From Squalus acanthias (lineage: Eukaryota): a stretch of 64,000 nucleotides of DNA. Both the position numbers and the translations under genes were made by a program. Of this stretch, positions 7,504-59,641 are shown in pieces (the stretch's first letter is position 1; each line of letters starts with the position of its first letter). The DNA is taken from positions 7,378,001 to 7,442,000 of the forward strand of contig CM059432.1 of assembly GCA_030390025.1 (NCBI GenBank), given 5' to 3'. Under the pieces are notes generated by a model. That model was not told where the DNA came from. It saw only the letters and a list, made by a program, of their open reading frames with translations, and did no database searches.

Positions 7504-9414
7504 AAAGCCCTAGAGGAGTATAGAAGGTGCAGGTGTGTACTTAAAAAAGAAATTAGGAGAGCGAAGAGGGGGCATGAAAAAACACTGGCGGGCAAAATAA
7601 AGGAAAATCCCAAGGTGTTTTATAAGTATATTAAGGGCAAGAGGATAACCAGGGGAAGAGTAGGGCCCATTAGGGACCAAAGTGGCAATCTGTGTGTAGA
7701 GCCTAAAGATGTAGGTGAGGTTTTAAATGAATATTTTGCATCTGCGTTCACTATGGAGAAGGACGATGTAGGCATAGAAATCAGGCAGGGGGATTGTGAT
7801 ATACTTGAACAAATTAGCATTGAGAGGGAGGAGGTACTAGCGGTTTTAGCGGGCTTAAAAGTGGATAAATCCCCAGGCCCAGATGAGATGTATCCCAGGC
7901 TGCTGTGTGAGGCAAGGGAGGAGATTGCAGGGGCTCTGACACAAATTTTCAGATACTCTCTGGCCACAGGAGAGGTGCCAGAGGACTGGAGGACAGCTAA
8001 CGTAGTACCATTATTCAAGAAGGGTAGTAGGGATAAACCAGGGAATTCCAGGCCAGTGAGCCTAACATCAGTGGTAGGGAAATTATCGGAAAGAATTAGT
8101 CTCCACTTGGAGAGGCAAGGATTAATCAAGAATAGTCAGCATGGCTTTGTCAGGGGAAGATCATGTCTAACCAAGTTAATTGAATTTTTCGAGGGGGTGA
8201 CTAGGTGTGTGGATGAGGGTAGTGCAGTTGATGTGGTCTACATGGACTTCAGTAAGGCTTTTGACAAAGTCCCGCATGGGAGACTGGTCAAGAAGGTAAG
8301 AGCCCATGGGATCCAGGGCAATTTGGCACATTGGATCCAAAATTGGCTTAGTGGCAGGAGGCAGAGGGTGATGGTCGAAGTTTGTTTTTGTGACTGGAAG
8401 CCTGTGTCAAGTGGTGTACTGCAGGGATCGGTGCTGGGTCCCTTGCTGTTTGTAGTGTACATTCATGATTTAGATATGAATGTAGGAGGTATGATCAGTA
8501 AGTTCGCAGATGACATGAAAATTGGTGGAGTGGTAAATAGCGAGGAGGGAAGCCTCAGGCTACAGGATGATATAGACGGGTTGGTCAGATGGACAGAACA
8601 GTGGCAAATGGAATTTAACCCTGAAAAGTGTGAGGTGATGCATTTTGGGAGGACTAACAAGGCAAGGGAATACACAATGAATGGTAGGACCCTAGGAAGG
8701 ACAGAGGATCAGAGGGACCTTGGTGTGCATGTAAATAGATCCCTGAAGGCAGCAGGACAGGTAGATAAGGTGGTTAAGAAGGCATATGGGATACTTGCCT
8801 TCATTAGCCGAGGCATAGAATATAAGAGCAGGGAGGTTATGATGGAGCTGTACAAAACGCTAGTTAGGCCACAGCTGGAATACTGTGTGCAGTTCTGGTC
8901 GCCACACTATAGGAAGGATGTGATTGCATTGGAGAGGTTGCAGAGGAGATTCACCAGGATGTTACCTGGGCTGGAGCGCTTCAGCTATGAAGAGAGACTG
9001 GACAGGCTGGGGTTGTTTTCCTTAGAGCAGAGAAGGCTGAGGGGGGACCTGATTGAGGTGTACAAAATTATGAGGGGCATAGATAGGGTAGATAGAAAGG
9101 AACTTTTCCCCTTAGTAGAGGGGTCAATAACCAGGGGGCATAGTTTCAAGGTAAGGGGCAGGAGGTTTAGAGGGGATTTGAGGAAAAATTTATTCACCCA
9201 GAGGGTGGTTGGAATCTGGAACTCACTGCCTGAAAGGGTGGAAGAGGCAGGAACCCTCACAACATTCAAGAAGCATTTAGATGAGCACTTGAAACGCCAT
9301 AGCATACAAGGCTAAGGACCAAGTGCTGGAAAATGGGATTAGAATAGGCAGGGCTTGATGGCCGGCGCGGACACGATGGGCTGAAGGGCCTCTTTCTGTG
9401 CTGTATAACTCTAT
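7504..9414 (+). mobile_element. CR1 LINE, 5' truncated
   Basis: Continuous ORF2 RT region and 3' tail ending in CTGTATAACTCTATGACT repeats. Confidence 0.93.
7615..9315 (+). CDS. CR1 ORF2 reverse transcriptase, C-terminal 566-aa open fragment lacking the endonuclease
   Basis: KSPGPD, SQHGF, DFSKAFD, QGSVLGP, KFADD, LEYCVQFW, RRLRGDLIEVYK motifs. Confidence 0.88.
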   Translation: MFYKYIKGKRITRGRVGPIRDQSGNLCVEPKDVGEVLNEYFASAFTMEKDDVGIEIRQGDCDILEQISIEREEVLAVLAGLKVDKSPGPDEMYPRLLCEAREEIAGALTQIFRYSLATGEVPEDWRTANVVPLFKKGSRDKPGNSRPVSLTSVVGKLSERISLHLERQGLIKNSQHGFVRGRSCLTKLIEFFEGVTRCVDEGSAVDVVYMDFSKAFDKVPHGRLVKKVRAHGIQGNLAHWIQNWLSGRRQRVMVEVCFCDWKPVSSGVLQGSVLGPLLFVVYIHDLDMNVGGMISKFADDMKIGGVVNSEEGSLRLQDDIDGLVRWTEQWQMEFNPEKCEVMHFGRTNKAREYTMNGRTLGRTEDQRDLGVHVNRSLKAAGQVDKVVKKAYGILAFISRGIEYKSREVMMELYKTLVRPQLEYCVQFWSPHYRKDVIALERLQRRFTRMLPGLERFSYEERLDRLGLFSLEQRRLRGDLIEVYKIMRGIDRVDRKELFPLVEGSITRGHSFKVRGRRFRGDLRKNLFTQRVVGIWNSLPERVEEAGTLTTFKKHLDEHLKRHSIQG

Positions 9415-10307
9415 GGGGGAGGAATTCAGTATCGCCCCATTTGGGGCGCAATTATCGGCCGGGCGCAAAGATTAGCGCCTGGCGCTAATTATCGCCACCG
9501 ACTGCAAACTTGACTTTTATCGCCCCTGGAGGTGATTGGAGCACTAAATCAGTCGCTTCACACCTGTCTTAAGGCGCAAAGGCCGAGGAGCGAGGCGCTA
9601 CCTCAGAGCGCTGGCGAAGCTCATGTGATGTCAGTCAGCAATGGAACACACACACAATGGCACGGGCCAGTTCTTAAAGGGGATGGTTAATCTTGCTTTC
9701 CATCCACACCCTGCTCATTGCAGCCTTGAATCTCGGCCTGGATGGACCTGCACATCAAATCTGCTGGAAAGAACAATGGAGAGTACCAGGCAAAGAGCTC
9801 AGAGTGCAGCCCCCACAGTCTCTTCAAAATCGATACAAAGAATGGCAAATCAAAATGAACCTGCAAAGTGCTGCTCAGTACCCAAAACTCCTTCACACAA
9901 CGTTGAATCTCTCCAGAAGTCTCTCTCTCTCTCTCTCAGAATGCGTGGTTCAAAAATGGCACCAACAATAAAAGGCAGGAAGCGGTCACCTTTAAATAGC
10001 GCTCCCCCTTTCCCTTCATGACTGCAAAACGCTCCCCTCAACCTGTCGTTGCTAGCGTCAGGCGGTAAGGCAGGGGGCGCCACTCAATATCCGCTCCAGG
10101 GCGATATCGGGGCGTTGCACACTCGACTGACGTCATGATCTGCCGGCGCAGGAGATTGTGGCGGTAGTGTTTAGCGCCGCCGCAAAATGTCTAGTTAATT
10201 TCGCGAGCGGCGCAAACTTCGCCGCGCCTGGGCGCTAGATGCTTTGCGCCCCATTAGCACCCTCTTAAGGCGCTAACTGGAGGCGCAACCAACTGAATTT
10301 TTCCCCC
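9415..10307 (+). mobile_element. Harbinger MITE, family A, copy 1
   Basis: TIR GGGGGAGGAATTCAG...CTGAATTTTTCCCCC; TSD TAT/TAT; ends match the 29479-33577 element. Confidence 0.93.
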
Positions 10308-11809
10308 TATGACTCTATGGGGAAGAAATTCAGTATCGCCCCATTTGGGGCGCAATTATCGGCCGGGCGCAAAGATTAGCGCCTGGCGCTAATTATCGCC
10401 ACCGACTGCAAACTTGACTTTTATCGCCCCTGGAGGTGATTGGAGCACTAAATCAGGCGCTTCGCACCTGTCTTAAGGCGCAAAGGCCGAGGAGCGAGGC
10501 GCTAACTCAGAGCGCTGGCGAAGCTCATGTGATGTCAGTTAGCAACGGAACACACACACAATGGCACGGGCCAGTTCTTAAAGGGGATGGTTGATCTTGC
10601 TTTCCATCCACATCCTGCTCATTGCAGCCTTGAATCTGGGCCTGGAGAGACCTGCACATCAAATCTGCTGGAAAGAACAATGGAGAGTACCAGGGAAAGA
10701 GCTCAGAGTGCAGCCCCCACAATCTCTTCTAAATCGATACAAGGAATGGCAAATCAAAATGAACCTGCAAAGTGCTGCTCAGTACCCAAAACTCCTTCAC
10801 ACAGCATTGAATCTCTCCAGAAGACTCTCTCCCTCTCTCTCAGAATGCGTGGTTCAAAAATGGCACCAACAATAAAAGGCAGGAAGCGGTCGCCTTTAAA
10901 TAGCGCTCCCCCAGTCCCTTCATGACTGCAGAATGCTCCCCTCAACATGTCGTTGCTAGCGGCAGGCGGTAAGGCAGGGGGCGCCACTCAATATCCGCTC
11001 CGGGGCGATACCGGGGCGTTGCGCACTCGACTGACGTCACGATCTGCCGGCGCAGGAGAACGTGGTGGTAGTGTTTAGTGCCGCCGCAAAGTGTCTAGTT
11101 AATTTCGCGAGCGGCGCAAACATCGCCGTGCCCGGGCGCTAGTTGCATTGCGCCCCATTAGCGCCCTCTTAAGGCGCTAATGTGTAAGGGGTTTTGTGTC
11201 GTGCTTGTATTGCAGACGGTGCTGGTGCGGGGTTAGGCCTTCGTTGCCTAATACTATTGCTTGCTCTGGTCTCCGGCCAGCCTTGTTGTAATAAGCACCT
11301 GTGAGTGGTTCGACCCACTCGCCCTTACGGTTCTAACACTGGACTTAGGTGCGAGAGCAGTAATGCAGAGAAAAACTCAAAATAGACCCGGTTGAATAGT
11401 ACGAAATGGAAATTTTTATTGCATAGCGTCCAAAATCATGAAGTACATGTCATAGGCACAAATTAACGATAGTACAAGTATACATACATTCATAAAGCTT
11501 GGTCTATGGTAATGAAGAACGCACGGCACATCGTAAAAAGGGGAACACATTATACTTTATCCTTAATAAAACCACCCTCCCTTATCAATACCTACACTAC
11601 ATCTAGATTTGTAGGATCGGGAAACATGCTCACCACTCGTGATACTTCGGAGAATTTTAAAGTGAGGCACTCGGCTCGTTTCGCTGCAGTGCCTGACTGT
11701 CACGTGTTTGGAGGGGCCTCTGTACCCCACTTGTTTACTTTCACTGCTGCTGCAAGCAGGCTGGGCTCCCCGTTGTCATGAAGAACTCGACAGTGCTCGG
11801 GCCCGGCTG

Positions 11810-11927
11810 TAGAACTCAAAGAAAAGTCTTCCTGGACCGACACCAGTTGCCGGTAGAATTCAAAGAAGAGTCTTCCTGTATCGACACCAGTTGTCGATAA
11901 AATTCGAGGAAGAGTCTATGACCAGTT
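11810..11927 (+). repeat. 44-bp tandem repeat (~2.7 units) inside the solo LTR
   Basis: TAGAAYTCAAAGAARAGTCTTCCTG...GACACCAGTTG units start at 11810, 11854 and 11898. Confidence 0.8.
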
Positions 11928-12274
11928 TGTGCAGTAACTGATAGAGTTCGTATAAATTTGGCGCGGTCGGGGTTTACTGACCGCGGCGGCACGTGGATTC
12001 TTCTTCTTCTCTTCTCATCTCGTCTCTTCGGGCCTTCGGGTCCAAAACACCGTTTACCGACACTCGGGATGGTGCACCCGGTTACTCGCCCTTCGTCGAG
12101 GTGGCTCGTCCCGATTGAGCTCCACCCAACATTCGAATAACCGTCCAGTGCGGCTAAAAGTCCAGAGTCAACAGAGAAGGCTGCTCGTCCAGCAGAGTTC
12201 AGCCCCAGTCAAGAGTTCGCAGAGATAAGAGAAAATAAGAGGAGACCGATGGACATTTGTTGTCTATAGTTATA

Positions 12275-13162
12275 GGGGGAAAAATTCAGTTGGTTGCGCC
12301 TCCCGTTAGTGCCTTAAGAGGGCGCTAATGGGGCGCAAAGCAGCTAGCGCCCGGGCGCAGCGAAGTTTGCGCCGCTCGAGAAATTAACTAGACATTTTGC
12401 GGCGGCGCTGAACACTACCGCCACGATCTCCTGCGCCGGCAGATCATGACGTCACTCGAGTGTGCAACGCCCCGGTATCGCCCCGGAGCGGATATTGAGT
12501 GGCGCCCCCTGCCTTACTGCCTGACGCTAGCAACAACAGGTTGAGGGGAGCGTTCTGGAGTCATGAAGGGAAAGGGGGAGCGCTATTTAAAGGTGACCGC
12601 TTCCTGCCTTTTATTGTTGGTGCCATTTTTGAACTACGCATTCTGAGAGAGAGAGGGAGAGACTTCTGGAGAGATTCAACGTTGTGTGAAGGAGTTTTGG
12701 GTACTGAGCAGCACTTTGCAGGTTCATTTTGATTTTCCTTGTATTGATTTAGCAGAAACTGTGGGGGCTGCACACTGAGCTCTTTGCCTGGTACTCTCCA
12801 TTGTTCTTTCCAGCACATTTGATGTGCAAGTCTCTCCAGGCCGAGATTCAAGGCTGCAATGAGTAGGATGTGGATGGAAAGCAAGATTAACCATCCCCTT
12901 TAAGAACTGGCCCGTGCCATTGTGTGTGTGTTCCATTGCTGACTGACATTACATGAGCTTCGCCAGCGCTCTGAGTTAGCGCCTCGCACCTCGCCCTTTG
13001 CGCCTTAAGACAGGTGTGCAGCGCCTGATTTAGCGCTCCAATCACCTCCAGGGGCGTTAAAAGTGAAGTTTCCAGTCAGTGGCGATAATTAGCGCCAGGC
13101 GCTAATTTTTGCGCCCGGACGATATTTGCGCCCCAAACGGGGCGCGACTGAATTTTTCCCCC
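12275..13162 (-). mobile_element. Harbinger MITE, family A, copy 3, nested in a solo LTR
   Basis: Reverse complement of copy 1; TIR GGGGGAAAAATTCAG; TSD ATA/ATA. Confidence 0.93.
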
Positions 13163-14689
13163 ATAGTGCTGTGTTCCCTTATCTCCCGCTCAAATCTTAA
13201 TGTTTGTCCTTTGTGAAATATTGGCGCTCAAAACTCCCAGCATGGGGTGATTCTTGTCTTTAACGGGTTTCGGTAGCACCTGAGACTGGCCAACTACCCG
13301 TTAATGTTTTCCCCATTGTTGAACCGGCTCGGAGCCTCCCTGGCTGGGTTTTGGGGGCCCCCGAATACTTGTTTAATCACCCGAGAATGGCTCTCTCATT
13401 GTAGAGCCGTGGGGGTATTTGCATATTGATGTGTCTGGATGGGCCTTCGATTGCCCAGTACAATGGTCCTTACTTGTGCATGGAAAACGATTCCAGCACT
13501 CATATCTTTTGCTATTGTCACAAATGCAAACAGGTTGCATCCTGTCTTTATCAGTGCTTATCGAAAATGTTTATTCGAACGCCATCTTGTCTGCCCACTG
13601 TACTTCTGGAAACTTCTGCCACGATGCGCGGCGGCCATTTTACAGGCTTCTGTGTCCTTTATATCATGACAGCATTTCGTTTAAATAAACTGATCAAACG
13701 AATCTGCTTCTATCTCGTTATTTCGAATCGCGATAATTGCGAAACTTTACAAATGGGACGTGCAACCAACTGAATTTTTCCCCCTATGACTCCCAAGGAT
13801 GTTGATAGTATTTTCAAATCAGGGTCAAGTTAATTAAAATTGTTAAATTGGAATAAAAGACTGTCTCATGTGAAACCGAAACAAGCCAATGTTCATTTTA
13901 TGCAGTGCTTTACAAAGCACGAAAGGAAAGAGAAACAAAGGCAGGATTGAAGCTTTTTCTCTCAACTACAATGAAGGGGTTAAGACAGGGAGAAAAGAGA
14001 AAAGATGGGTAAAAGAGTCACCAAAGATTGGTTGCTGACGGTTCTGCACCTGGAGATTAATCTATCGCGGTAACAATGCGTCCTAATGCTGTTGACATTG
14101 AGTCGTCCTTCTTGTGTTGGCATTTAACATAAAATTGAACGACAAACACAGAAGAGCACAACATCAAAAAGCAGTTCTCCAGAAGGAGCCCTCACTCGGG
14201 GAAAACATGCCGCATTCCTTCAACGAAGGAATATGAAAGGCACAGTGTTCCTGAAAATATTCACCGTATGCTGAACAGCGAGTTCCATTAACGACTATTA
14301 AACATGCAACCGTTAAGAAACCCTTGGCTCGGTGAAATGTTATTTTGTGCTGTGGAGGGGAGAGGTAGGAAGTGGTAATTACAGCATAATGATCGGGGGA
14401 ACAAATTAAATTGTCCAATTTTATTGCTTTGAGTAACAGTGGCGCACAGTTAGCAATGAAAATAATCTAAAAGAAGAGGTGAGGGAGTGCTAATGTTGAT
14501 ATATGGTGCAACATAGAATCCGTTACATGAATAATTTATGGCTGTAAAGCCCAAAATATGAATAAATCATGTCAGCTAGAAAACATATACAAATGTTCAA
14601 TAATGGGACAGTTTCTTTGCATCTGTAAGCAAGTAATGTAACAGATGCATACAAGCCTGTGAAGGAAATATGGTCTATTTGTGATGCAT

Positions 14690-16735: not shown

Positions 16736-16874
16736 TCGCTCGCTCGCTCGCTCACTCACTCACTCACTCACTCACTCACTCACTCACTCACTCACTCACT
16801 CACTCACTCACTCACTCACTCACTCACTCACTCACTCACTCACTCACTCACTCACTCACTCACTCACTCACTCA
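16736..16874 (+). repeat. (CTCG)n(CTCA)n tetranucleotide microsatellite
   Basis: About 30 perfect CTCA units preceded by a few CTCG units. Confidence 0.97.
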
Positions 16875-27804: not shown

Positions 27805-29475
27805 GAATCCTAGATTGGTTACAGCACAGAAGGAGGCCATTCGGCCCGTCGAGCCCGTGCCGGCTCTCTGCAAGAGCACTTCAGCTAGTCCCACTCCCCC
27901 GCCCTTTCCCCGTAGCCCTGCAAAATTTTTTCCTTCAGGTACTTATCCAATTCCCTTTTGAAAGCCGTGATTGAATCTGCCCCCACCACCCTTTCAGGCA
28001 GTGAATTCTAGATCCTAACTACTCGCTATGTAATAAAGTTTTTCCTCATGTCGTCTTTGGTTCTTTTGCCAATCACCTTAAATCTGTGTCCTCTGGTTCC
28101 GCCAATGGGAAGAGTTTCTCTCTATTTACTCTGTCTGGACCCCTCATGATTTTGAACACCTCTATCAAATCTCCTCTCAATCTTCTCTGCTCTAAGGAGA
28201 ACAACCCCATATTCTCCAGTCTATCCACGTAACTGAAGTCCCTCATCATAGAGTCATAGGGGTAGAAATTAGGTCGCGCCCCATTTGGGGCGCAAATATC
28301 GTCCGGACGCAAATATTAGCGCCTGGCGCTAATTATCGGCACTGACAGGAAACTTCACTTTTACCGCCCCGGGAGGTGAGTGGAGCGCTAAAGCAGGCGC
28401 TGCACACCTCTCTTAAGGCGCAAAGGCCGAGCAGTGAGGCGCTAACTCGGAGCGCTGGCGAAGCTCATGTAATGTCAGTCAGCAATGGAACACACACACA
28501 ATGGCACGGGCCAGTTCTTAAAGGGGATGGTTAATCTTGCTTTCCATCCACATCCTGTTCATTGCTGCCTTGAATCTCGGCCTGGAGAGACTTGCACATC
28601 AAATGTGCTGGAAAGAACAATGGAGCGTACGAGGCAAAGAGCTCAGAGTGCAGCTCCCACAGTCTCTGCTAAATCGATACAAGGAATGGCAAATCAAAAT
28701 GAACCTGCAAAGTGCTGCTCAGTACCCAAAACTCCTTCACACAACGTTGAATCTCTCCAGAAGTCTCTCCCTCTCTCTCTCAGAATGCGTAGTTCAAAAA
28801 TGCCACCAACAATAAAAGACAGGAAGAGGCCCCCTTTAAATAGCGCCCCCCCCAGCCCCACAGCGATTGATAGCGTTCCAGTCTTCTGGTCGTTGGAAGC
28901 GCCAGGCGGTAAGGCAGGGGGCGCCACTCAATTTCCACTACGGGGCGCCACAAGGGCGTTGCACCATGGAATGACGTCACAATCTGCGCGCGCAGGTGGT
29001 CGCAGCGGTAAGTTTTAGTGCCGCCGCACAATCTCAAGTTAAGTTCTCGAGCGGCGCAAACATCGCTGCGCCCGGGCGTTAGCGGCTCTGCGCCCCATTA
29101 GCGCCCTCTTAAGGCGCTAACGGGAGGCGCAACCAAGTGAATTTTTACCCCATAGAGTCATAGAGTTATACAGCACAGAAAAAGGCCCTTCGGCCCATCG
29201 TGTCCGCGCCGGCCATCAAGCCCAATCTATTCTAATCCCATTTTCCATCACTTGGTCCGTAGCCTTGTATGCTATGGCGTTTCAAGTGCTCATCTAAATG
29301 CTTCTTGAATGTTGTGAGGGTTCCTGCCTCGACCACCCTTTCAGGCAGTGAGTTCCAGATTCCAACCACCCTCTGGCTGAAAAAGTTTTTCCTCAAATCC
29401 CCTCTAAACCTCCTGCCTCTTACCTTGAAACTATGCCCCCTGGTTATTGACCCCTCTACTAAGGGGAAAAGTTCC
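27805..29475 (-). mobile_element. Two CR1 3' fragments (27805-28245; 28246-29475 split by MITE copy 4)
   Basis: LFSLEQRRLRGDLIEVFK; 29152-29475 is the reverse complement of ~9100-9414. Confidence 0.8.
28259..29151 (+). mobile_element. Harbinger MITE, family A, copy 4
   Basis: TIR GGGGTAGAAATT...AATTTTTACCCC; TSD ATA/ATA inside a CR1 tail repeat. Confidence 0.93.
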
Positions 29476-29989
29476 TATGGAAGAAAAATTCGGTTGGTTT
29501 GCGCCTCCCGTTAGCGCCTTAAGAGGGCGCTAATGGGGCGCAAAGCAACTTGCGCCCGGGCGCGGCGATGTCTGCACCGCTCGCGAAATTGACCAGACAT
29601 TTTGCGGCGGTGCTAAACAATACCGCCCCGATCTCCTGCGCCCACAGATCTTGACGTCAGTTGAGCGTGCAACGCCCTTGTGGCGCCCCGCACCGGATAT
29701 TGAGTGGTGCCCCCCTCCTTTCTGCCTGGCGCAAGCAATGACAGGGAGACTGGAACGTTTCCCAGTCGGTGTGGGGCTGGGGGGGGTGCAATTTAAAGGC
29801 GGCCTCTTCCTGGCTTTTTCTGTGGTAGACATTTTTGCACCACTCATTCTGACAGAGAGAGAGATTCTGAGACAGAAAAGGAGAGATTTCTGCATAGAGT
29901 CAACGCTGTGTGAAGTAGTTTTGGCTACTGAGCAGTACTTTGCAGGTACTTTTGGATTTGACCTTCATTACTTTGATTACCAAGAGACT

Positions 29990-31138
29990 TTGGGGGCTGC
30001 ACTGATTCGTGGCGTCATCCTGCGCCTGCAGAATCGGAGGCAACAGAGACGCAGAGAGAGAGTGGTAATCATGGCCAGACAGAGGAGGGCCAACAGGCCT
30101 CTGCACAGGAGACCTTACCCTCCCAGGGTATTTCGGCAACAATTCTCCTACATTAATTTGTCTGAGGAGCAGTGTTTGCGCAGGCTGCGCTTCAGCAAGG
30201 AGGTGGTCACTGAGCTCTGCCACCTGCTGCAGCCAGATCTGCAGCCTCAACTGAGGACCAGGACGTCTCTGTCGGTGGCAGTGAAGGTCACAGTGGCTCT
30301 GAACGTTTATGCCACCGGCTCCTTTCAAGCAGCTACTGGGAACAGCCAATATCTCCCAGTTCGCTGTCCATTGCTGCATCCGTCAGGTCACAAGTGCCCT
30401 CTATAAAAGGAGACGCCAGTACATCTCTTTCCCGATGACCCGGGCCAAACAGCATGAACGCGCATTGGGCTTTGCAAGGATAGCAGGCTTCCCCATGGTG
30501 CAGGGCACCATTGACTGCACGCATGTGGCATTGTGTGCACCGCATGAGAATGCAGAGGTTTTCCGCAACCGCAATGGGTTCCACTCCTTAAACGTCCAGT
30601 TGGTCTGTGACCACAGACAGCTGATACTCGCTGTCAATGCCCGCTATCCTGGCAGCAGCCACGATGCTTTCATCCTGCGCCAGACTGGTGTGCCAGAGCT
30701 TTTCCAGGCAGCGCATCAGCTAAGTGGTTGGCTCCTCGGGGACAAGGGTTAGTCACTGTGCACCTGGCTGATGACACCGCTCCGTAACCCCAACACCCCT
30801 GCTGAGCTGCGGTACAACGAGAGCCATCTCGCCACCAGGAACATCGTTGAGCAGACGATTGGCGTGCTCAAGCAACGGTTCCGCTGTCTGGACCACTCAG
30901 GAGGGGCCCTGCAGTACTCGCTTGAACGAGTCTCCCCCTTCATAGTTGTGTGCTGCATTCTTCATAACCTTGCAATCCTCAGGACCCAGCCAATGCCACC
31001 AGGCCTTGGAGCACCACCGGAGAGGAGGAGGAGGAAGAGGAGGAGGATGATCATCAGCAGCACCAAGGCGGGAGGGAGGACCACAATGTTGAAACTGCAA
31101 GGGCCGTCCGTCAACGGCTGATAACAAGCCGTTTCTAG
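29990..31138 (+). pseudogene. Harbinger DDE transposase (HARBI1-family nuclease), disrupted
   Basis: Joined ORFs 29651/30309/30771 give RRLRFSKE, YATGSFQ, GFPMVQGTIDCTH (D), ARYPGSSHDAFIL, WLLGDKG (D), RNIVEQTIGVLKQRFRCL (E), CCILHN. Lesions: TTG at the likely start (29990), frameshift near 30340, TAG at 30750-30752 where Tyr is expected, frameshift near 31020. Confidence 0.92.
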
Positions 31139-31382
31139 GCCCCTACAGAGGAACTGGCTTCTGGCATGGAGAACAACAGGAATGAAACCAACCCACAACC
31201 CCTAAGCCGGCCAAGGCAGCAATGATTCCAAAGGCCAAACCTGTACATTTTGAATACAAAATTTTTTTTATTTTACAAACTCTGTGTGTGTCATTTCTTC
31301 ATGACAAACTAATAGAAACAAACACAAAAAATCATTCATTAACATAACTGGTTCTCACAACCTGGAGATAATGGCCAAAACA

Positions 31383-33216
31383 CTAAACAAAAGTGTGAAC
31401 ACGAATCTCGGCCTTTAATAAAAAATTGACCAACATTTCGTCACACCTCCTACTTTTGCCCTTCAAGGGTGATCTCCTTCCCTTGCGCACTTCCCCCCTT
31501 CCCACCCTACTGCTCCTCCGTAATGGGGCCCCAGTGGCTGCAGCAAGGGTGGTGGAAGGCTGCTGATTGTCAGAACCTGAGACTGCAGATGCCCTTGAAG
31601 GACGGCCTCGACCAGCTCTGGGCCTGGAGGGCCTGGCTGCAGACTGCACCAACTCTGCATGGGCGGCAGCAGTCTGGGCTACAGGCGGTGGCAAGTGCAG
31701 TGGAGAAGTGACAGTGGTGGCAGCAGGAATGCTGTCATCTTGAGAGAGGACAGCAACTCCCTGCTCGACCGACACACTGGCACTCCCACGGGGCAGCACA
31801 TCAGCATCTGAGCAATCTGCTGGAGCACAGATTGCTGGCCTGCTGCGGCGCGGTGAGAGCCCCGGGGAAATGTGTCCGAACCAGCGACAATGGCAGCAGT
31901 CAGTGCTCGCGTGGCCTCAATCTGAGTCTGCATGAGAGCAGTCTGAGATTGGATCACGGCAGCCAGTGACTGAATTGCAGCACTAAGTTTTAGCGTGGCA
32001 TCCGCCTGTGCTACAGCGTAGTGCTCCACACTCCTTGCCAGTGCATCAATGCATTCGGGCACCCTTCCCACTGCACCCATGAGCTGAGTGTGCATGTCCA
32101 CCGCCTGGGTGTTCATTTCAGCGATGAGCCGCTCCTCCTCTGCGTCCAGTGCAGCAGGACTCGCTGGCCTACTCTCCCTCTGGGGAGAAGGCCCCCGAGC
32201 TTCCCTACCCCCATCGCGTTGCTGCAGCCCGCTGGGTCCCGGAGCTTCACCCTCATCAGACCCTTCCCCCCCTGCTCCCCTCCAGGGAAGACGTGTTCCC
32301 AGTGTGGGCATGGGCTTCCTCGGGAGAGGGTGGCGCTGATGCTCCATCTTCCTCTTCCTCCTTGCCTGCAGCTTCACTCCCACTGGCAGCTTGAGGGCCC
32401 GTCTCCTCAGCTGGTGAATCACCATCTGAAAGCAGGGAGGTACAAGAGTGGCTTTAGCGTGAGGACAGGGGGGGGCAGTAAGGGAGGAATGAGTGCAGCG
32501 ATTTAGTAAGTTGGATTGAAAGTGTCAAAAGCTGGTGTTGTGAGGGACAAGTGCAATGAGAGAGGAGAGAAAGCTGATGACCTTACCATTGCTGTCCCGA
32601 ATGGGGTCGGCCTCTCCAGGGGCGACGGGACCGATCACCTGGCTTACCACAATCCTGTGGACGCGTGCCTCAAGATCGCTGAGGGGTTGCAGCTGAGGCC
32701 GCCCTCCACCCGTCCGTTGCTGCTGTCTCCTGTTATGAGATAGCTTGGCCTGCAAGAAAAAGGACGGCGTCTGAGTAAATATACAGCCATGGTCTTGTCT
32801 GATGTGCCTCCCATAGTTGAATAGCCCTTACTGTATGCAAAGTGTGGAATGTGCGTGTGTGTTTAATGAGATGGCCATAGATCTTGGATGAGTGTTGGGC
32901 ATTGGGGTTTTAAGACCCTCTGGCCATAGTGTGAGGTTGAGATGGAGGGATGGAGAGGTATTGAAAAAAAGCCACTCACCCTGATGACCCGAGTGAGGTC
33001 GTTGAACTTTTTGCGACATTGAGTATGGGTCCTGGGCACCATGCTCCTGGAGGAGACGTGCTGAGCCACCTCCCTCCACACTCTTCTGTAATCGCGCGGC
33101 AAAGGCCTCCTGCCACTCTCAGGGAAGAGTATAGATCTTCTGCGCTCCACTGCACCAACCAGAGCCTCCAAGGCCCACTCGCTGAAGCGCTGAGCTCGTT
33201 CTCTCACCCTCTCCAT
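31383..33216 (-). pseudogene. Harbinger Myb/SANT-like DNA-binding protein gene, three exons, frameshifted
   Basis: Exon 1 33216-32980 (MERVRERAQRFSEWALEALV...VWREVAQHVS...RTHTQCRKKFNDL; donor GTGAGT). Exon 2 32749-32587 (AKLSHNRRQQQRTGGG; ttgcag acceptor, GTAAGG donor). Exon 3 starts 32425 (tttcag acceptor) with acidic, coiled-coil-like and basic segments; frameshifts near 32270 and 31800. Intron phases 0 and 1 are consistent. Confidence 0.85.
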
Positions 33217-34244
33217 AGTCCTTGGCTGGAAAATGTAGTCACAGGTCTCCCCAGGCCGAGATTCAAGGATCCAATGAGCAGGGTATGGCTGGAGAGCAAG
33301 ATTGACCCTCCCATTTAAGAACTGTCCGTTGCCAGTGTGTCTGTGTTCCATCGCTAACTGACATCACCTGCGCTGCGCCCGCGCTCTGAGGTAGCGCCTC
33401 ACTCCTCGGCCTTTGCGCCTTAAGAGAGGTGTGCAGCGCCTGATTTAGCGCTCCAATCACCTCCAGGGGCGATAAAATCCAAGTTTGCAGTCGAAGGCGA
33501 TAATTAGCGCCAGGCGCTAAACTTTGCGCCCGGCCGATAAACGCGCCCCAAACGGGGCGATGCCAAATTTCTCCCCCTGTGACTTTCTCATTGCACGAAA
33601 TAACTCCGAAAAAATGAGAGCACTAGACAACAAAAAAATGCAATTCACATTTTAAAATCAATTTATGATTGAAACAACCTTAAGCACAAATATTTTCCCT
33701 TTGAGATAATAAGGGGGTTGATTTTGACTTGGTGCAAAATGCGAGATAGCAAATTGGCATTGCCTGCGATGGATATTAAAATGGGGAGGGATGTAAAATG
33801 GGCTGCTGACTCGCTATCACCGATTTCACAGCATTGCTCAAAGTCAACATCGACCGCCAAAGTGTTTTTTCACAGGGTACATTTCTGAATTTATTAAAAG
33901 TTTTCCGCGTCCCTGAGAGATTTTTCTTCATTATTTCACTGTCAACCAAACAGTTCCATCTGCAAGCTGAAATGTCACCAAGATAAAGCCGGTGCTTTCC
34001 TTGCTCATTCTCCAGTGATGGGTTTTGAAAAATAGAGAAAAGCTGATTTTTGTGATTAATAACTGTGGTGAACACTGTCAAAGGGACAATCACGCTTCAT
34101 GATATCACAACGCAGTTGGTTTTATATCTATTTAGGGCCCTTGAGGAGGAGGCAAACGTTGGTCCTGATATCTCCCCGCACGCCAGCTGATCTGCTGTGG
34201 GGTTAACGCAGTTTTCAGGTGTGGGGAGCAAGGGTTTGCTGGGA

Positions 34245-40417: not shown

Positions 40418-41310
40418 GGGGTAGAAATTAGGTCGCGCCCCATTTGGGGCGCAAATATCGTCCGGACGCAAATATTAGCGCCTGGCGCTAATTATCGGCA
40501 CTGACAGGAAACTTCACTTTTACCGCCCCGGGAGGTGAGTGGAGCGCTAAAGCAGGCGCTGCACACCTCTCTTAAGGCGCAAACGCCGAGCAGTGAGGCG
40601 CTAACTCGGAGCGCTGGCGAAGCTCATGTAATGTCAGTCAGCAATGGAACACACACACAATGGCACGGGCCAGTTCTTAAAGGGGATGGTTAATCTTGCT
40701 TTCCATCCACATCCTGTTCATTGCTGCCTTGAATCTCGGCCTGGAGAGACTTGCACATCAAATGTGCTGGAAAGAACAATGGAGAGTACCAGGCAAAGAG
40801 CTCAGAGTGCAGCTCCCACAGTCTCTGCTAAATCGATACAAGGAATGGCAAATCAAAATGAACCTGCAAAGTGCTGCTCAGTACCCAAAACTCCTACACA
40901 CAACGTTGAATCTCTCCAGAAGTCTCTCCCTCTCTCTCTCAGAATGCGTAGTTCAAAAATGCCACCAACAATAAAAGACAGGAAGAGGCCCCCTTTAAAT
41001 AGCGCCCCCCCCAGCCCCACAGCGATTGATAGCGTTCCAGTCTTCTGGTCATTGGAAGCGCCAGGCGGTAAGGCAGGGGGCGCCACTCAATTTCCGCTAT
41101 GGGGCGCCACAAGGGCGTTGCACCAAGGAATGACGTCACAATCTGCGCGCGCAGGTGGTCGCAGCGGTAAGTTTTAGTGCCGCCGCACAATCTCAAGTTA
41201 AGTTCTCGAGCGGCGCAAACATCGCTGCGCCCGGGCGTTAGCGGCTTTGCGCCCCATTAGCGCCCTCTTAAGGCGCTAACGGGAGGCGCAACCAAGTGAA
41301 TTTTTACCCC
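40418..41310 (+). mobile_element. Harbinger MITE, family A, copy 5
   Basis: TSD TTA/TTA; nearly identical to copy 4. Confidence 0.93.
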
Positions 41311-48683: not shown

Positions 48684-49574
48684 GGGGGAAAAATTCAGTA
48701 TCGCCCCATTTGGGGCGCAATTATCGGCTGGGCGCAAAGATTAGCGCCTGACGCTAATTATCGCCTCCGACTGCAAACTTGGCTTTTATCGCCCCTGGAG
48801 GTGATTGGAGCGCTAAATCAGGTGCTTCACACCTGTCTTGGGGGCAAAGGCCGAGGAGCGAGGCGCTACCTCAGAGCGCTGGCGAAGCTCATGTGATGTC
48901 AGTCAGCAATGGAACACAGACACACTGGCCCCGGCCAGTTCTTAAAGGGGAGGGTTGATCTTGCTCTCCATCCACATCCTGCTCATTGCAGCCTTGAATC
49001 TCGGCCTGGAGAGACCTGTACATCAAATCTGCTGGAAAGAACAATGGAGAGGCCCAGGGAAAGAGCTCAGAGTGCAGCCCCCACAGTCTCTTCTAAATAG
49101 ATGCAAGGAAAGGCAAATCAAAATGAACCTGCAAAGTGCTGCTCAGTACCCAAAACTCCTTCACACAGCATTGAATGTCTCCAGGAGTCTCTCTCTCTCT
49201 CTCTCAGAATGCGTGGTGCAAAAATGTCACCAACAAAAAAAGGCAGGAAGCGTTCGCCTTTAAATAGCGCTCCCCCAGTCCCTTCCTGACTGTAAAACGC
49301 TCCCCTCAACCTGTCGTTGCTAGCGGCAGGCGGTAAGGCAGGGGGCACCACTCAATATCGGCTCCGGGGCGCTACCGGGGCGTTGCGCACTCGACTGATG
49401 TCACGATCTGCCGGTGCAGGAGATCGTGGTGGTAGTGTTTAGCGCTGCCGCAAAATGTCTAGTTAATTTCGCGAGCGGCGTAACATCGCCGCGCCCAGGC
49501 GCTAGTTGCTTTGCGCCCCATTAGCGCCCTCTTAAGGCGCTAACAGGAGGCGCAACCAACTGAATTTTCCCCCC
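48684..49574 (+). mobile_element. Harbinger MITE, family A, copy 6
   Basis: TIR GGGGGAAAAATTCA...TGAATTTTCCCCCC; TSD AGA/AGA inside a CR1 3' end. Confidence 0.92.
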
Positions 49575-49690: not shown

Positions 49691-50745
49691 GGGCTGGATT
49701 TTCCCCGTTTCCCACCCGCACGGTGCGGGGGGACCCGGGAGACGGTGGGAAACCCGGAAGTTCGGAGTTTCCAAGCCCGGGATGGGGGATCCGACCCCCG
49801 ACCCCGGGGAGGGGCGGGGCGGGGGGGGAGCTGCTGCTGGTGCGGGAGCTTGGGGGGCCGTAAGGAAGCACTCCTGCTCCTCCCGGCCCACCAGGGTTAC
49901 TCCCCGAGGTTGTGGACTGCCTCGTTGCAGCCACCGGGAATCCCGAGCCCCGTGATCCCCGGCCGCCTGCAGTAAAGCCAGCAAAGCAGGTTAAAGTAGA
50001 GGCTTCAGGCCTCATTATCATATTTAAATTGCCGACCTGCCTCCTGGCAGCGGGCTGCGCATGTGCGTAAACCCGGAACTGGCGATCTGTCCAGGTTTCA
50101 GCTTGGACAGATCGTACACATGCGCAGGGAATGGACATTTGCGGGCGGAGAGTTGGGCTATTTTCACCAACTACTGCCCAGCGAATGCCCATGAAACCCT
50201 TACGCCTGGTACAAGCAGGGACAGGGCCTTCTTTTACCAGCGTAAGGGCGAAAAGAAATATTAAAATAAATTTTTAAAAATCATTTAAACATTTAAAAAC
50301 CTTTAATATTGGTTTAGGTTATTTTTGGCCCCTTTAGAAATGTTTACATTTATTTTTCAAAAAATTTAATTTTTGTTTTAAATGTTTAATAAAATTGTAT
50401 TTTTTATTAATTTTAAACATGTGTGATTTATTTTTATTTAGGTTGTGTGAAAGTGTGTTTTTTCGGGGATTCCTATTCATGCTCATGGGAATTCCGACCA
50501 TAAGTGGAGTCTCCATAAGCATAATGGGAATCCCCCTTTGTGATTGGTTGGGCCGGCCCACATGATCCCAGGGATGCTTGTGAACCGCCTGCCCCCCTGG
50601 GATACGCGGACCTTTACTCAGGCCTACACCCGCAGGCCCAGGAGCGCGAGAGTCCGAAGGTAAGGAGGTCCCAAGTAGGTGCGTACTTTTCTTGCGGATC
50701 GGAGGCATTCGCCCGCGGGAAGCTTCCGACCGCAATTTCAGGTCC
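49691..50745 (+). mobile_element. Putative non-autonomous DNA transposon related to family C
   Basis: Shares the GATCCCAGGGA...CCCCTGGGATA block with ~57230 and ~46770; imperfect GGGCTGGATTTT/AATTTCAGGTCC ends; no clear TSD. Confidence 0.6.
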
Positions 50746-52069
50746 GCAATTTGGGACAGGGAGTTTGTTACTGGCCATAGGAACGTGGAAGCAGGAGGAG
50801 GCCATTCAGCCCCTCAAGCCTGTTCCACCATTCAGTGACATCATGACTGATCTGCATCCTAACTCCATCCACCTGGCCTGGCTCCATATCCTTTTATACC
50901 CCCTGGCTAGCGAAAAATCTATCAATCTCAGGTGGCCCTGGGCAGCTGGGAGTCCCACTCTTGCACTTCTGAAAGAGGAATTATCCATGATAGCTGTGGT
51001 TAAAATTCTGGCGAGCCGCTCTTTGGCATGTGTAGTGCGAGGGGTGGGGGCCAACATTGTGCCCTCCCAAACTGTTATTTTACAATCGTTATCTTTAATG
51101 CTCAGAACATTGTGGGGCTGGTTTGCGATGTGTGCTCCCTAAATGCACAAAGAAGCAAGGTGTTGGGATTTTTCACCCTTGGTCCCATTCACCTGCTCTT
51201 TCCCCGTTAGCTTGGTTTTTTCCCCACCATTATCCACTTTCCCTTTTAAAAGAATTGTGGATTTTTGCTTTCATCCATGTTTCCATTGGAGACTTGACCA
51301 CTGTCTAGTCGGCTGCTCTTTTAGACTGAACCACACTGTCTGAAACCGTGGCGTCTTTTTTGGCCATTAGCTGAGCTCCCAACCCCATAGACTCTCCATC
51401 ACAAAGACTGCCTACTTCCGCCTCCAGAACATTGCCCGCCTCCGCCACTACCTCAGCTCCTCTGCCGATGAGCCATTAACCATGCTTTCGGCACCTTTCA
51501 ACCACGACCATTCCTGGCCGGCCCTCCTCCATCCTCTGTAAACCTAAGCTCAACCAATACCCCGCAGTCCATATCCTTTGCCGCACCAAGTCCCGCCTGA
51601 CCATTTGACTGTCTTGCCTGCCTTAAATTGTCTCCCCAACTCCTCAAATTTAAAATTCTCTTATTTGAGTCCCTGAGGGCCTCATCCCTGTTACTGTAAT
51701 CTCCCCCAGCTCTCCAACCTTCCCTCTTCAACGCTCCATTTCGCTGATTCCACTCTCTTGTGCATCCTTTCTCTCTCTACCCACCATTGACAGCTGTGTC
51801 TTCAGCCTCACGCCAAACTCTGGACTGGTCTCTCTGCTTGTCCACCTCCCTCCCTATCGGCCCTAGAAAATCCAGGCCATGATCTTTGCCGTAATCAGGG
51901 CAAGCAGCCCACATCTGGCTCCCTCTTTAAGAGTCTTTTTAAAACCATCTCTTTGACCAAGCCTTTGGTCACCTTTCCTAATATCTCCTTCTTTTACTGG
52001 GTGTCCATTTTTTTTTGTTTACACTGTTGAGGATGCTTTACTAAATTAAAGGCACGATATAAATGCAAG

Positions 52070-52910: not shown

Positions 52911-53467
52911 TTGTAGCAGTCCGTATCCTAACAACCCTCTACATAAGAATAAAACTCCTAACCTCGCCCTGTGTCGTTTCTTAAATTTTTGTCCTCTACT
53001 TACTGACTTACTGACCAGTGGAAATAACTTCTAGCAATTGATTTTATCAAAATTTCTCACAATTTTGAACATCTGTATCAGATCTCCTTCTATGTTGTAA
53101 TAGAAGGAGCCTCCGTTTCTCTAGTCTTTCCTCACAGCTAAAGCCTTTCATCACTTCGTAAATCTCCTCAGTATCCGCTTCATGGTCTTGACAGCCTTCC
53201 TAAATTAAGGCACCCAAAACTTGAACAATATTCCAACTGTAGCCTAATCAATAATACAACGTCCATGAATCAGACGCTTCCTCCAAGAGGGTGCTTTGCT
53301 TAAAACAGAAAAGATGTGCTGGAAAGCATTTGAAATCAATCCAACCAGGATTTTCCGCAGCTGTTGAAACTCAGGCCTATTAGTTCTACAGACTTTCTGA
53401 ACTTAAAACTTTCTGCATCTTTTATATCACAACAACTTGCATTTATAGAGCGCCTTTAACGTAGTAA

Positions 53468-53973
53468 AACTTGGCTCGCGCCCCCTGACCTACGGCCGGA
53501 CGCTATGTCCGACAGGGTCAGGGGGGGCGTTCTTGCGGCCGGATCGGCGATAATTAAAGGGCAGGTACCAGGCGGCCATTTTTTTTTAGGCCGCTTGCCA
53601 GCACCTGCCCCCTCTCGCCCCCCCCTCTTGTGGGGTGCCGGCCGCGATCCGTCTTTTGCCGGCACCCCCGCTCCCCGGTGGTCCAGCAGGGCCCCGGTGT
53701 GCGCTGGGCTCGGCCCCTCCTCTTTAATCAGGGGAGGGAGGCCTGCAGTACCACGGCGCTACGTGCCGACGTGCGTGGCGTAGCGCCGCGATATTCCATG
53801 GGAGCACCCCAAGAGGGATGGGAACGCTCCCAGTAGCGCCCCGCCTCCTGCTTGGGGCGCTACCATTCAATTTTGGGCACGGGGCGGGGGGACGTTAACA
53901 TTTTTGGGGCGCTAAAAGTAGCGCCCCGGCGAAGTTAGCAGCCCAAAGGGGGCGCGAGCCAAGCTTTCCCCCC
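53468..53973 (-). mobile_element. Truncated Harbinger-type MITE related to family B, inside an L2 fragment
   Basis: Shares the CTGACC/GTCGGAC hairpin and interior with family B; inverted CTTGGCTCGCGCCCCC/GGGGGCGCGAGCCAAG; one terminal TTTCCCCCC. Confidence 0.75.
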
Positions 53974-54191
53974 TTGGTCGAAGAGGTAGGTTTTAACGGG
54001 CATCTTAAAGGAGGAGAGAGAGGTAGAGAAACGTCCACTGACTTGTGTTTTCTCGACAGATGCTGCCTGACCTGCTGAATGCCTCCTGGGTTTTTTTCTG
54101 TTTTTGTTTCCAGCATCTGCCGGTTTTTTTGACCAACCTTCTTTATATATTCAGCTCTTGACTCGTGACTGTATTCTGACTTTTCTTTTGA

Positions 54192-54845: not shown

Positions 54846-55447
54846 GGCGGAAAAAATCGGTGTCGCCCCATTTGAGGCACTAATTTTAGCGCCCGAAAAA
54901 ATTAGCGTCCCCTCCGCCGGAAATTCAGTTCTAGCGCCCCCAGCAGGAGGTGGAGCGCTACTGGAAGCGCTGCTTGGGCCGCTACAACTGAATATCGCGG
55001 CATTACGTGCAACAGCGCCGCGTCATTGCAGGCCTCCCTCCCCTGATTAAAGGGGAGGGGACCTAGCACTGCTCGCACCGGGGCCCTGCTGGACCACTGG
55101 CGAGCGGGCTGCCGGGAAAACAGCCCGGCAGTCCGAAGAAAAAAGGGGGAAGGGGGCAGGCGCTGGCAGTCGGCCAAAAAAAAATGGCCGCCCAACACCT
55201 GCCCTTTAAGTAGCGCCGACGCGGCTGCAATAACGCCACCCCCCTGACCCTGTCGGACATATCGTCCGGCGATAGGTCAGAGGGCGCAAGCGAAGTTTGC
55301 TCCGGGGCGCTGCGCACGGCGATGATGTCATTGGCGGCGGTGCAGAGCCGTGGGGCGCTACCGGCTACAGCTAAACTCCCACTGAATTTCGCGGGAGGCG
55401 CTAGCGGCGCCGCCCCTGAGGGCACAAATCAACCCAATTTTTCCCCC
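54846..55447 (+). mobile_element. Harbinger-type MITE, family B
   Basis: TIR resembles family A (GGCGGAAAAAAT...ATTTTTCCCCC); TSD ATT/ATT; interior differs from family A. Confidence 0.85.
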
Positions 55448-55675
55448 ATTGAGGTTTTCCAGCACACAAACAGGCCATTCGGCTCCACAAGTCCGTGCCG
55501 GCGTTCATGCTCCACATGAACCTCTTCATATCACCCTTTTTCCCTCATGTGTTTATCTAGCCGTCCCTTAAATGCATCTACGCTATTCGCCTCAACCACT
55601 CCCTGTGGTAGCGAGTTCCACATTCTCACCACTCTCTGGGTAAAGAAGTTTCTCCTGAATTCCCTATTGGATTTT

Positions 55676-56649: not shown

Positions 56650-57413
56650 GGCCCAGAAATTCGGCTGTTGTCGGGTGAGTACGTGCTGTGTACTCACCCG
56701 TAAGGCCTCCTGAAGTGCCGGTTTCCTGCATGCACTGCGCATGCGCGGGAAACCGGAACTTCCGGTCTCGTGAAGGGAGGGGTTCAGAGGTGAACCGCGT
56801 GCGCGGGAGAGGCTGGGTGCACGCAGCGAACTTAGGTTTTTTTTCAGGTTTCTCCGGGAGGGTAAGTATGAAGAAGCTGCGCTTTTAAAAAGGAGGCGCA
56901 AGGTCTGTTTTTAACAAGGTAAGTGGTTAATTAATTACAATTTAAACATTTTTTCAACAGGTTTATCTTTTTTAGATACTTTAAAGAAAGGTAAGTTTAT
57001 TTTTAGCACTGTTAAAAAGTATTTTAATTTTTTCAAAAATTTTAATTTTTGTTTAAAGTAGTTAATTTATTTAACTTAGAGTTATTTTAAAAATGTGATG
57101 TTTTTAAAAAAAAATTATTTGAAGTTTAGGTGTTGTTTTGGGGCCGATTTCAGTTCATAGATTTGACAGGTCTTCCTGTCAAATCTATGAATGAAAATGG
57201 CCTGCTAGGATTGGCTCTCCATGGCCCACGTGATCCCAGGGGACGCTTTGAACTAACTGCGCCCCTGGGATATGCAAGCACTGTGCGCTGGCAGCTGCAG
57301 GAGGCCCAGGATCCGAAGTCCTCGTGGGCCCAAAACACAACGGCAGGCGAAGTAGGCAAGTACGCGCGCGATGCTTGCACCCGCAGGAAGCCGGAAAACT
57401 GAATTTCTGGCCC
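56650..57413 (+). mobile_element. Harbinger-type MITE, family C
   Basis: TIR GGCCCAGAAATTC...GAATTTCTGGCCC; TSD ATT/ATT; GC-rich ends around an AT-rich core. Confidence 0.8.
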
Positions 57414-57637: not shown

Positions 57638-59251
57638 GAGGGAAAAATTGGGTGGCGCCCATTTTCGGGTGCTAACATCGCTGGGGCGCCGAAAAAGTTA
57701 ACGCCTGTAAGCATCAATGCAGGCCCCAAAGAGGTTTTTTTTTGTATCAGACATTTTGAATGCTGTTACTGCTGGTTTGACCAACTGCCTGTTTGGAGAA
57801 GATGGGAGGGGCCCAGGTGTTTGTGGACAGGAGATTCCAGCCAGGCCTACAAACTAATTATGGGAGAATGTCTGGGCAGACAGAATTCTCTGGGAAGACA
57901 ATGGGTCCGGGGAGATGACTCATACGGTCACGAGCACCTCGATGAGATAGCCCCGAAAGGCGGGAACCGGACAAAAGAGGGCCATTGCAAATTAATGGGA
58001 AGCCACTTAACCCAGGATCAGGTGAGAAGTGCGGCCCCTCATCTGCCATTATCACCAGCACCTCGATGGGATAGCCCCGAAAGGCGGGAAACCAGACAAA
58101 GAAGACAAAGAAGGGTGATTAAAAAGACATAACTGCAACTACACAGGGCAGAGTGAACTTTTCGGATATAGAGAAGGCAGCTTTGGCCATTTCTCTCTCT
58201 CTCTCACTTGCTCTAAACCACCACGAGCGACAAGAGCCTGGCCTTGCTCTTCGACTGTAGGAACGAACCTCGAAACTGGGACTTGGATACTGCATCGGCG
58301 ATATGGAACCAGGAGACACGTTCTACACAAGGGAGCAGCGAGCAAGAAAACGGACAATCGGGGTGAGCATTGTCCAAGCCCACGCATCCTTAAGACCACC
58401 GGTATTGTGTGAGGGGGTGTTGTGTGTCCCAACCAGTCCAGAGGGGTTTAGTGGGGAGGTTCTGTGTGTATTATATAGTGTATGTTCCAGGGTTTGTGGG
58501 ACAAGTCCATGTTATACTCTGTACAGCAACACAGTGTGATTTTAGGCGTCTTAATACGAGACAGGGGCCTGTTCGACGGGCCAAGTTGTATTGTTGTACT
58601 GTTTGTTTTACGCCACCAGGCAATTTTACGTACTGGAGGTGGGTGTGTGTGTTAACCTCGTTAAGCACCGTACGGTTGAGTCTGAAAAGCTTGTCTGTGT
58701 TCCAATCCTGTTCACCGTAATTCCTGTCGCTGGAACTAAGTAGGAGAGGTGATTCGAACCACCAAGGCAAACCACCTACATGCCCCTCCGCCGTTAAGTC
58801 AGTAGTAGCGCTCCAAGCAGGAGGCGGGGCACTACTGGAAGCGCACCCCTCCTGCTTGGGGCGCTACTACTGAAGTTCGCGGCGCTACGTGATTAAAGGG
58901 GAGGGGCCTCGCGCTGCGCGCACCGGGGCCCTGCTTGACCAACGGGGAGGAGGAGTGCTGGACTCAGCGATCGCGGCCGGCACCCCGAAGAAAAAAAAAG
59001 GGGAAGGGGGCAGGTTCTGGCAGTCGGCCAAAATAAAAATGGCTGCCCGACGCCTGCCCCTTTTACTAGCGCCGCCGCCGCCGCTGCAAAAATGCCCCCC
59101 CTGACCCTGTCGGACATATCGTCCGGCGATAGGTCAGGGGGCGCAAGGGAAGTTTGCGAGCGGGGCGCTGCGCACGGCGATGACGTCATCACTGGAGGCG
59201 CAGCGCCGCGGGGCGCTAACAAGAGGCGCAAACCAAGCCAATTTTTCCCCC
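57638..59251 (+). mobile_element. Harbinger-type MITE, family B, interrupted by a solo LTR
   Basis: GAGGGAAAAATTGG...CCAATTTTTCCCCC; TSD ATA/ATA; homologous to 54846-55447. Confidence 0.85.
57706..58780 (+). mobile_element. Solo LTR inserted in a family B MITE
   Basis: TGTAAG...CCTACA termini; TSD CGCC/TGCC (one CpG-type change); internal direct repeat; orientation is tentative. Confidence 0.8.
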
Positions 59252-59641
59252 ATAGAAATTAAAATAAAACAGAAAAAGGAGGTTTATGATTAATGTCAGG
59301 TTCATAATTCAGAAGAGAACCAAGCTGAATACAAATTGTACAGAAGAGATATGAAATAGGAAATAATAGGGGCAAAGAGAGTATATGAGAATAAATTAGC
59401 AGGTAACATAAAAGGAACCCAAAAGTCTTTTATAAACATATAAATAGTAAAAGGGTATTCAAACGAAGGGTGGGGGTGATTAAGGACGAAAAGAGGAATC
59501 TTCTTGTAGATGCAGAGGGCATGGCTGAGCTACTAAATGAGTACTTTGCAACTGTCTTCACTATCAAAGAGAATGCTGCCAATGTCACAGTAAAGGAGAA
59601 ATTGGATAGGATAAAAATAGATAAAGAGGAGGTACTTAAAA

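Follow-up and report, generated by a model that had tools for sequence, protein, structure and literature searches.

Harbinger-type MITEs in the octamer tails of a CR1 subfamily, and a target preference that reaches past the 3-bp duplication, in a window of Squalus acanthias

Why do several copies of one family of small DNA transposons sit in the 3' tails of one subfamily of retrotransposons? The question is raised by a stretch of 64,000 nucleotides from Squalus acanthias (contig CM059432.1, positions 7,378,001 to 7,442,000), here called the window, which is repeat-rich vertebrate DNA with 47.7% G+C. It holds six copies of a miniature inverted-repeat transposable element (MITE), family A, and a coding relative of the Harbinger type, element H. 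An earlier note had proposed that these elements prefer the target AGHY-WTA-G, that the microsatellite tails of CR1, a long interspersed nuclear element (LINE), supply it in tandem, and that such tails are a self-renewing landing pad. The observation is confirmed, and that interpretation is partly supported. Family A was inserted three separate times in two CR1 tails, the target reaches beyond the target-site duplication (TSD) of 3 bp, and the ordinary sequence preference of a Harbinger-type transposase probably drives the tail insertions.

A scan for pairs of terminal inverted repeats (TIRs) with 3-bp duplications, together with BLAST of the first copy, gave six family A MITEs, each about 890 bp long. 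Empty sites were reconstructed by deleting each element and one TSD, for a set of nine sites: family A (6), H (1) and a second family, B (2). The coordinates and words of all nine were found as listed in the earlier note, and the TSDs are exact in 8/9 (H has TAT/TGT). The sites at 9412, 10316 and 28256 read AGTC-ATA-G, 12272 reads AGTT-ATA-G, 40415 reads AGCT-TTA-G and 57635 reads AGAT-ATA-G; 29476 is a further AGTC-ATA-G provided that the TGT at 33578 is a mutated TAT. Three of the MITEs do sit in the (CTATGACT)n tails of one CR1 subfamily, two of them (A1 and A2) with 8 bp between them when the tail is read as empty. The features of these tail loci are as follows.

7504..9414, + strand: 3' part of a young CR1-type LINE (reverse transcriptase (RT) frame 7504-9315, 3' untranslated region (UTR) and first tail unit), with octamer tail and RVT_1
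9415..10307, + strand: MITE A1, 893 bp, TSD TAT, within the first tail unit
10308..10318, + strand: tail unit separating A1 and A2 (TSD, GACTC, TSD)
10319..13784, + strand: MITE A2, TSD TAT, within the second tail unit, split by an insert resembling a long terminal repeat (LTR)
11183..13751, no strand assigned: LTR-like insert in A2, host of A3 (TG...CA, 4-bp AATG duplication)
12275..13162, - strand: MITE A3, TSD ATA, at the non-tail site AGTT-ATA-GTGC
13785..13792, + strand: distal remainder of the CR1 tail beyond A2
28259..29151, + strand: MITE A4, TSD ATA, in the tail of a minus-strand CR1
29152..29476, - strand: second young CR1 copy, 5'-truncated, with its tail continuing at about 28245-28258

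The nesting order at the A2 locus is CR1, then A2, then the LTR-like insert, then A3. A partial second copy of that insert lies at 59640-59871 (81%). The young CR1 at 7504-9315 has a 603-aa open frame with an RVT_1 match (E=1e-27), as for an RT-encoding ORF2, and its octamer tail agrees with ATTCTRTG in 7/8 letters; the CR1 label is a putative one that rests on the tail and the RT hit.

The tail copies might have multiplied together with their surroundings, either as a TAT-MITE-TATGACTC unit in tandem or as a CR1-plus-MITE composite that spread. At the A1/A2 junction the sequence repeats with a period of exactly 904 nt, which is also expected of a tandem duplication, and two informative columns at the left end join A1 with A2 in the alignment of A1, A2, A3 and A6. 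But 12 columns join A1 with A3 against A2 and A6 (2 more join A1 with A6), and a tandem duplication of A1 and A2 was rejected on them; the identity of A1 and A2 (95.1%) is also no higher in kind than that of A1 and A3 (94.5%). A4 is of a second subfamily, 87% identical to A1 and 99.0% to A5, and it sits in a different tail unit, in the orientation opposite to its CR1. The two young CR1 copies are 95.9% alike over 317 nt. Because 12 columns join A1 with A3, and because A4 belongs to the other subfamily and opposes its CR1, the three insertions took place separately, in two copies of CR1. Co-duplication is largely refuted, and we give it hardly any chance.

The remaining sites of the set of nine are occupied by these elements.

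29479..33577, no strand assigned: coding Harbinger-type element H, 4.1 kb, flanks TAT/TGT
40418..41310, + strand: MITE A5, TSD TTA, site AGCT-TTA-GCCG
48684..49574, + strand: MITE A6, TSD AGA, site GAAT-AGA-AGGT (the poorest fit)
54846..55447, + strand: family B MITE B1, TSD ATT, site TTAC-ATT-GAGG, within the 3' tail of a different CR1-type LINE
55451..55664, - strand: 3' end of an older CR1-type element, with B1 in its tail (BLAST 73.7-75% to the CR1 3' end)
57638..59251, + strand: family B element B2 with an internal insert, TSD ATA, site AGAT-ATA-GAAA

To see the flanks of other copies, contigs from 4 of 23 runs were aligned to 9200-10318, and loose ends at the MITE termini were taken as those flanks. 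The flank rows displayed are from X15 and X17, two organisms that differ from the best-matching one (X3, X5). On the left, 281 contigs of X15 end in AGAT-ATA and 209 of X17 end in AGAC-ATA. On the right, 215 contigs of X15 read ATA-GTGTT and 163 of X17 read ATA-GTGTC, and an additional X15 row of 160 contigs gives ATA-GTGT again. The plurality target in the contigs of these two organisms is the two-sided AGAY-ATA-GTGT (163-281 contigs per row). By our count, G or C is the plurality letter at 8/108 flank positions of the four main rows, and none of these 8 is more than 5 nt away from the TSD. The tails are not the source of this consensus: at -2 and +2 it reads A and T, the tail T and A, and no repeat shows in it beyond ±5. 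An orientation bias, with ATA at both MITE ends in the contigs, was considered and discounted, since the rows lose flanks that match the reference TAT. X15 and X17 also carry family A variants without about 216-247 nt at 9596-9846, which points to a shorter MITE form in those organisms. Exact-pattern scans of metagenome contigs for the MITE ends gave 0 loci.

The window itself carries the same signal. At the six sites outside CTATGACT tails, 27/48 flank positions match the contig consensus, against 14.8 for a TSD-matched background (P=0.00013; P=0.00033 without H, 0.00044 without H and B1, and 0.0036 for family A only). The matches are densest next to the TSD, with Y at -1 in 6/6 and G at +1 in 5/6. 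A model with the TSD alone was rejected on these sites (negative log-likelihood 55.7 vs 44.6-46.9). The proposal of a target longer than the TSD therefore stands, with information outside the 3 bp in both the contig flanks and the six non-tail sites. Its form AGHY-WTA-G, which ends at +1, is corrected: the motif is two-sided, extends to about +4, and is better given as A-G-(A/W)-Y-[ATA]-G-(T/W)-G-T. The earlier note had also set aside two sites as misfits, 48681 (AGA) and 54843 (ATT). Their words are as described, but the element at 54843 is also in a LINE 3' tail, of another subfamily.

How well do the CR1 tails fit this target? The empty tails are two and three CTATGACT units long, and each unit offers the word AGTC-ATA-GAGT, which scores 9/11 against the contig consensus. 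Only 21 of about 52,000 positions score as high or higher, and 4 of these are in ACTCTATG tails. Among the octamer repeats scored, ACTCTATG reaches 9/11 and four others reach 6-7. The ACTCTATG octamer is one letter off the canonical ATTCTRTG (7/8), and its C at position 2 creates the fit. That one C, relative to ATTCTATG, fixes both -3 and +3 because these positions are 8 nt apart and the repeat has a period of 8.

An anchor pattern found 21 LINE 3' ends in the window, of which 3 are occupied: both ACTCTATG tails, with three insertions, and 1/19 of the others (B1). The ACTCTATG tails make up 0.11% of positions, and the TSD-only model expects 0.4% of insertions there, compared with 3/9 observed (P about 6e-6). 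A two-parameter model of the motif, fitted on the non-tail sites, puts 27% of insertions in these tails when W is admitted at ±2 and 31% when ±2 is left out (P=0.45 and 0.56, in a binomial that counts A1 and A2 as independent draws). These lax models fit the non-tail sites as well as or better than a strict one with A at -2 and T at +2 (negative log-likelihood 46.3 and 44.6 vs 46.9). In these models the motif can explain the tail enrichment, and how fully it does so hinges on the weight at ±2. In the 52,319 nt that remain once the elements are removed, the 8-mer of the earlier note has 14 occurrences, 7 of them occupied, a count that is circular because the motif was read from those same sites.

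Several points weigh against our account. The sample is n=9 sites drawn from three element types, and the window was picked by a reader for its striking look. H is broken, and its ends are only 81-85% like the MITE ends. The non-tail sites match the consensus at +2 and +4 in only 1/6 each. The contig rows give plurality letters, not frequencies, with an agreement of 0.38-0.39 over 30 nt; a flank that goes on matching the reference TAT drops out of the rows at 9415 and 10307, which makes ATA as the TSD in part a product of selection; and none of the 24 rows listed, beside 2831 others, is a flank row of the best-matching organism. The lax versions at ±2 were chosen after the mismatch had been seen, and under the strict model the ACTCTATG tails should receive 4.6% of insertions, so that 3 of 9 or more has P=0.006.

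This excess could mean that something beyond the 11-bp word guides the insertions, such as read-out of a tandem array with two spaced cores, the DNA shape of the octamer, the CR1 3' UTR, or tethering by chromatin or a protein at the ends of young LINEs. Counting any LINE tail, the strict model predicts 7.4% compared with 4/9 (P=0.003). The tail with B1 is a different one, and the B1 site scores only 6/11; TIR-like ends also stand directly after LINE tails at 49691 and about 50777. Against such targeting, the excess is gone with the lax ±2 (P=0.36-0.61), 18/19 of the other LINE ends are empty, and the contig consensus is unlike the tail at ±2 and beyond ±5. We consider additional targeting unlikely.

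A second alternative accepts the motif and takes the tail enrichment for a local excess in a striking window, with a genome-wide tail share of a few percent. The three insertions are in two tails of a window chosen by a reader, and A1, A2 and A3 are at one locus, where local clustering is possible. Hundreds of contigs per run carry a tail that is empty past the first TAT: at least 211 in X5, 559 in X15 and 283 in X17. These contigs, and a contig consensus that is not tail-like, argue against a dominant landing pad. On the other side, the insertions are spread over two distinct copies of CR1, come from two MITE subfamilies and point both ways, and even the strict model gives the tails a 42-fold enrichment per base. 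Identical tail-MITE junctions also collapse in contigs, so tail insertions are undercounted and the contigs set no firm upper bound; contig depth is not copy number, and depth figures were left unused. A purely local excess seems to us quite improbable. The enrichment proposed in the earlier note holds within the window, and the tail is not the plurality target of the contigs. A self-renewing landing pad is plausible, its genome-wide size aside.

Ordinary sequence preference is the account we favour, and it would work as follows. Family A would be a non-autonomous derivative of a two-gene Harbinger-type transposon related to H, with a DDE transposase and a Myb/SANT protein. The target read by the transposase complex would be degenerate, close to a palindrome and about 11 bp long (AGAY-[ATA]-GTGT, as written for the ATA strand); the TSD, ±1 and ±3 would count most, and the complex would duplicate the 3 bp in the centre. 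ACTCTATG is the terminal octamer of one young CR1 subfamily, and every unit of the subfamily's tail would present AGTC-ATA-GAGT, a near-best target, two to three times in tandem. Because the units spell a near-best target in tandem, tails would be hit by ordinary preference with no dedicated LINE-seeking step, and every new CR1 copy would add targets. The account implies that sequence read-out alone may suffice for the enrichment, that CR1 and MITE activity probably overlapped in time, and that H-like proteins may mobilise family A, as the 81-85% identity of the MITE ends to those of H suggests.

Where does H belong? On its + strand, at about 30071-31140, it encodes a putative DDE transposase with a broken frame (PF13359, E=1.7e-15 and 1.1e-13), and on the - strand, at 32863-33363, a putative Myb/SANT open reading frame (ORF; PF13873, E=1.8e-9). 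The best relatives of the transposase are putative nuclease HARBI1 proteins of cartilaginous fishes (up to 73%). In the broad PHIS / Harbinger superfamily, H and the MITEs fit by the DDE_Tnp_4 ORF with a second Myb/SANT ORF, by short TIRs that start with G and a 3-bp TSD, and by a target preference reaching past the TSD. The subgroups of PMC4482050 are set apart by their TSD: TWA, CWG, C|TNA|G and ANT. The tally here is ATA/TAT in 6/9, and TTA, AGA and ATT in 1/9 each. The narrow PIF/Harbinger of that paper, with 5'-TWA-3', would be represented by TTA in 1/9. NuwaII, with C|TNA|G, finds TNA in 1/9, yet the non-tail sites have Y at -1 in 6/6 and G at +1 in 5/6. Pangu, with an ANT TSD and a second ORF without Myb, finds ANT in 1/9 (B1), and H has Myb/SANT. 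Because none of these classes fits the ATA/TAT majority, the family is filed at the superfamily level only. The left TSD of H falls, within one base, on the 5' truncation point of the young CR1 (29476), and the DNA beyond H is not CR1; because of this coincidence, 29476 is the weakest of the empty sites and perhaps not an original one.

Four elements stand outside the set of nine. A family B copy at about 53466-53974 is in reverse orientation, with one end apparently deleted and without a TSD. A family C element at 56650-57413 has GGGCCAGAAATTC-type ends, TSD ATT and TIRs that differ, with related pieces at 46483-46809 and 50316-50607. A short TIR-like element at 33713-33858 has the ends GGGGTTGATTTT / GGCGGTCGATGTT and the flanks TAA/AAA, and its right flank is GTGT like the family A consensus. 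At the 49691-50777 composite, two LINE 3' tails face each other within 49660-50812, each followed by a TIR-like end starting with GG, around family C-like sequence with no matching TSD; these are possibly two more tail insertions joined by rearrangement. Elsewhere in the window, 16739-16875 is a (CTCA)34 microsatellite, and 60059-61249, putatively Penelope-like, is an open frame of 396 aa in which motifs resembling RT and GIY-YIG can be made out by eye, with no Pfam match at E<=0.001.

What is new here is a target word with an ATA/TAT core rather than TWA, and its match to the octamer of one CR1 subfamily. We suggest only tentatively, as something that may well prove wrong, that the one-letter octamer change made the tail a tandem, near-optimal target, and that the 3' tail of this young, abundant LINE receives a tenth to a third of the family's insertions in several cartilaginous fishes. 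If so, the LINE would keep supplying harmless landing sites, a coupling of class I and class II elements encoded in sequence. Each insertion would also interrupt a CR1 tail, and CR1 copies probably need the 3' tail for priming. A vertebrate target that combines a core of ATA/TAT with flanks resembling Harbinger3_DR's would help to assign the reading of flank and triplet within the two-protein complex. If the tail share holds genome-wide, this would be a natural case of one element's microsatellite steering another, with a built-in control in ATTCTATG vs ACTCTATG, and a warning to annotators that CR1 ends and these MITEs may often be fused in repeat libraries. Among the titles and abstract openings searched, with Repbase entries and subscription papers outside the search, nothing was found on Harbinger insertion into CR1 tails. 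Micron, a microsatellite-targeting element, is reportedly another small DNA transposon that accumulates in other repeats.

How does the family compare with known systems? PIF has the consensus CWC-TTA-GWG, and by that measure the right half-site GWG is equal here and the left differs at -3. An extended target is itself established for PIF/Harbinger, with a length of 9 bp in plants and of 15 bp in vertebrates (PMC2836001), which makes the mechanism at work a known one. It is not universal, because in barley Harbingers no more than a short TAA motif was found (PMC5738225). Our family is like PIF/mPIF of maize and Ping/Pong/mPing of rice (PMC2836001) in having a DDE and Myb master, MITE derivatives, a 3-bp TSD and a preference that spans the TSD and about 3 bp on each side; the TSD of those elements is TTA/TAA, whereas here it is mostly ATA/TAT with signal to ±4 or 5. 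NuwaII (PMC4482050) shares TIRs starting with GG, DDE and Myb/SANT ORFs, and a pyrimidine before and a G after the triplet, but its target is C|TNA|G and a TNA TSD is seen here in 1/9 only. Zebrafish Harbinger3_DR, with the target AAACACCWGGTCTTT (PMC3016246; see also PMC2836001), is likewise a vertebrate Harbinger with a long near-palindromic target. By our comparison the X17 rows, with AGAC..GTGT, show the reverse complement of its inner flanks, ACAC..GTCT. The central triplet of Harbinger3_DR is CWG, where ours is ATA/TAT, and the specificity here looks much looser, with sites such as AGA and ATT.

The hosts of the insertions can be compared as well. The CR1 3' octamer repeat is given in PMC2612034 as ATTCTRTG / TTCTGTGA, in one to four units, and ACTCTATG agrees with it in 7/8 letters, the differing one being the C at position 2. 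Small DNA transposons accumulate in repeats in rice and maize too, where the host differs from the LINE tail seen here, and a review of such nesting, PMC5172404, calls MITE insertion into class I elements surprisingly rare. In sharks and rays, CR1-group elements make up 22-34% of the genome according to PMC13343379.

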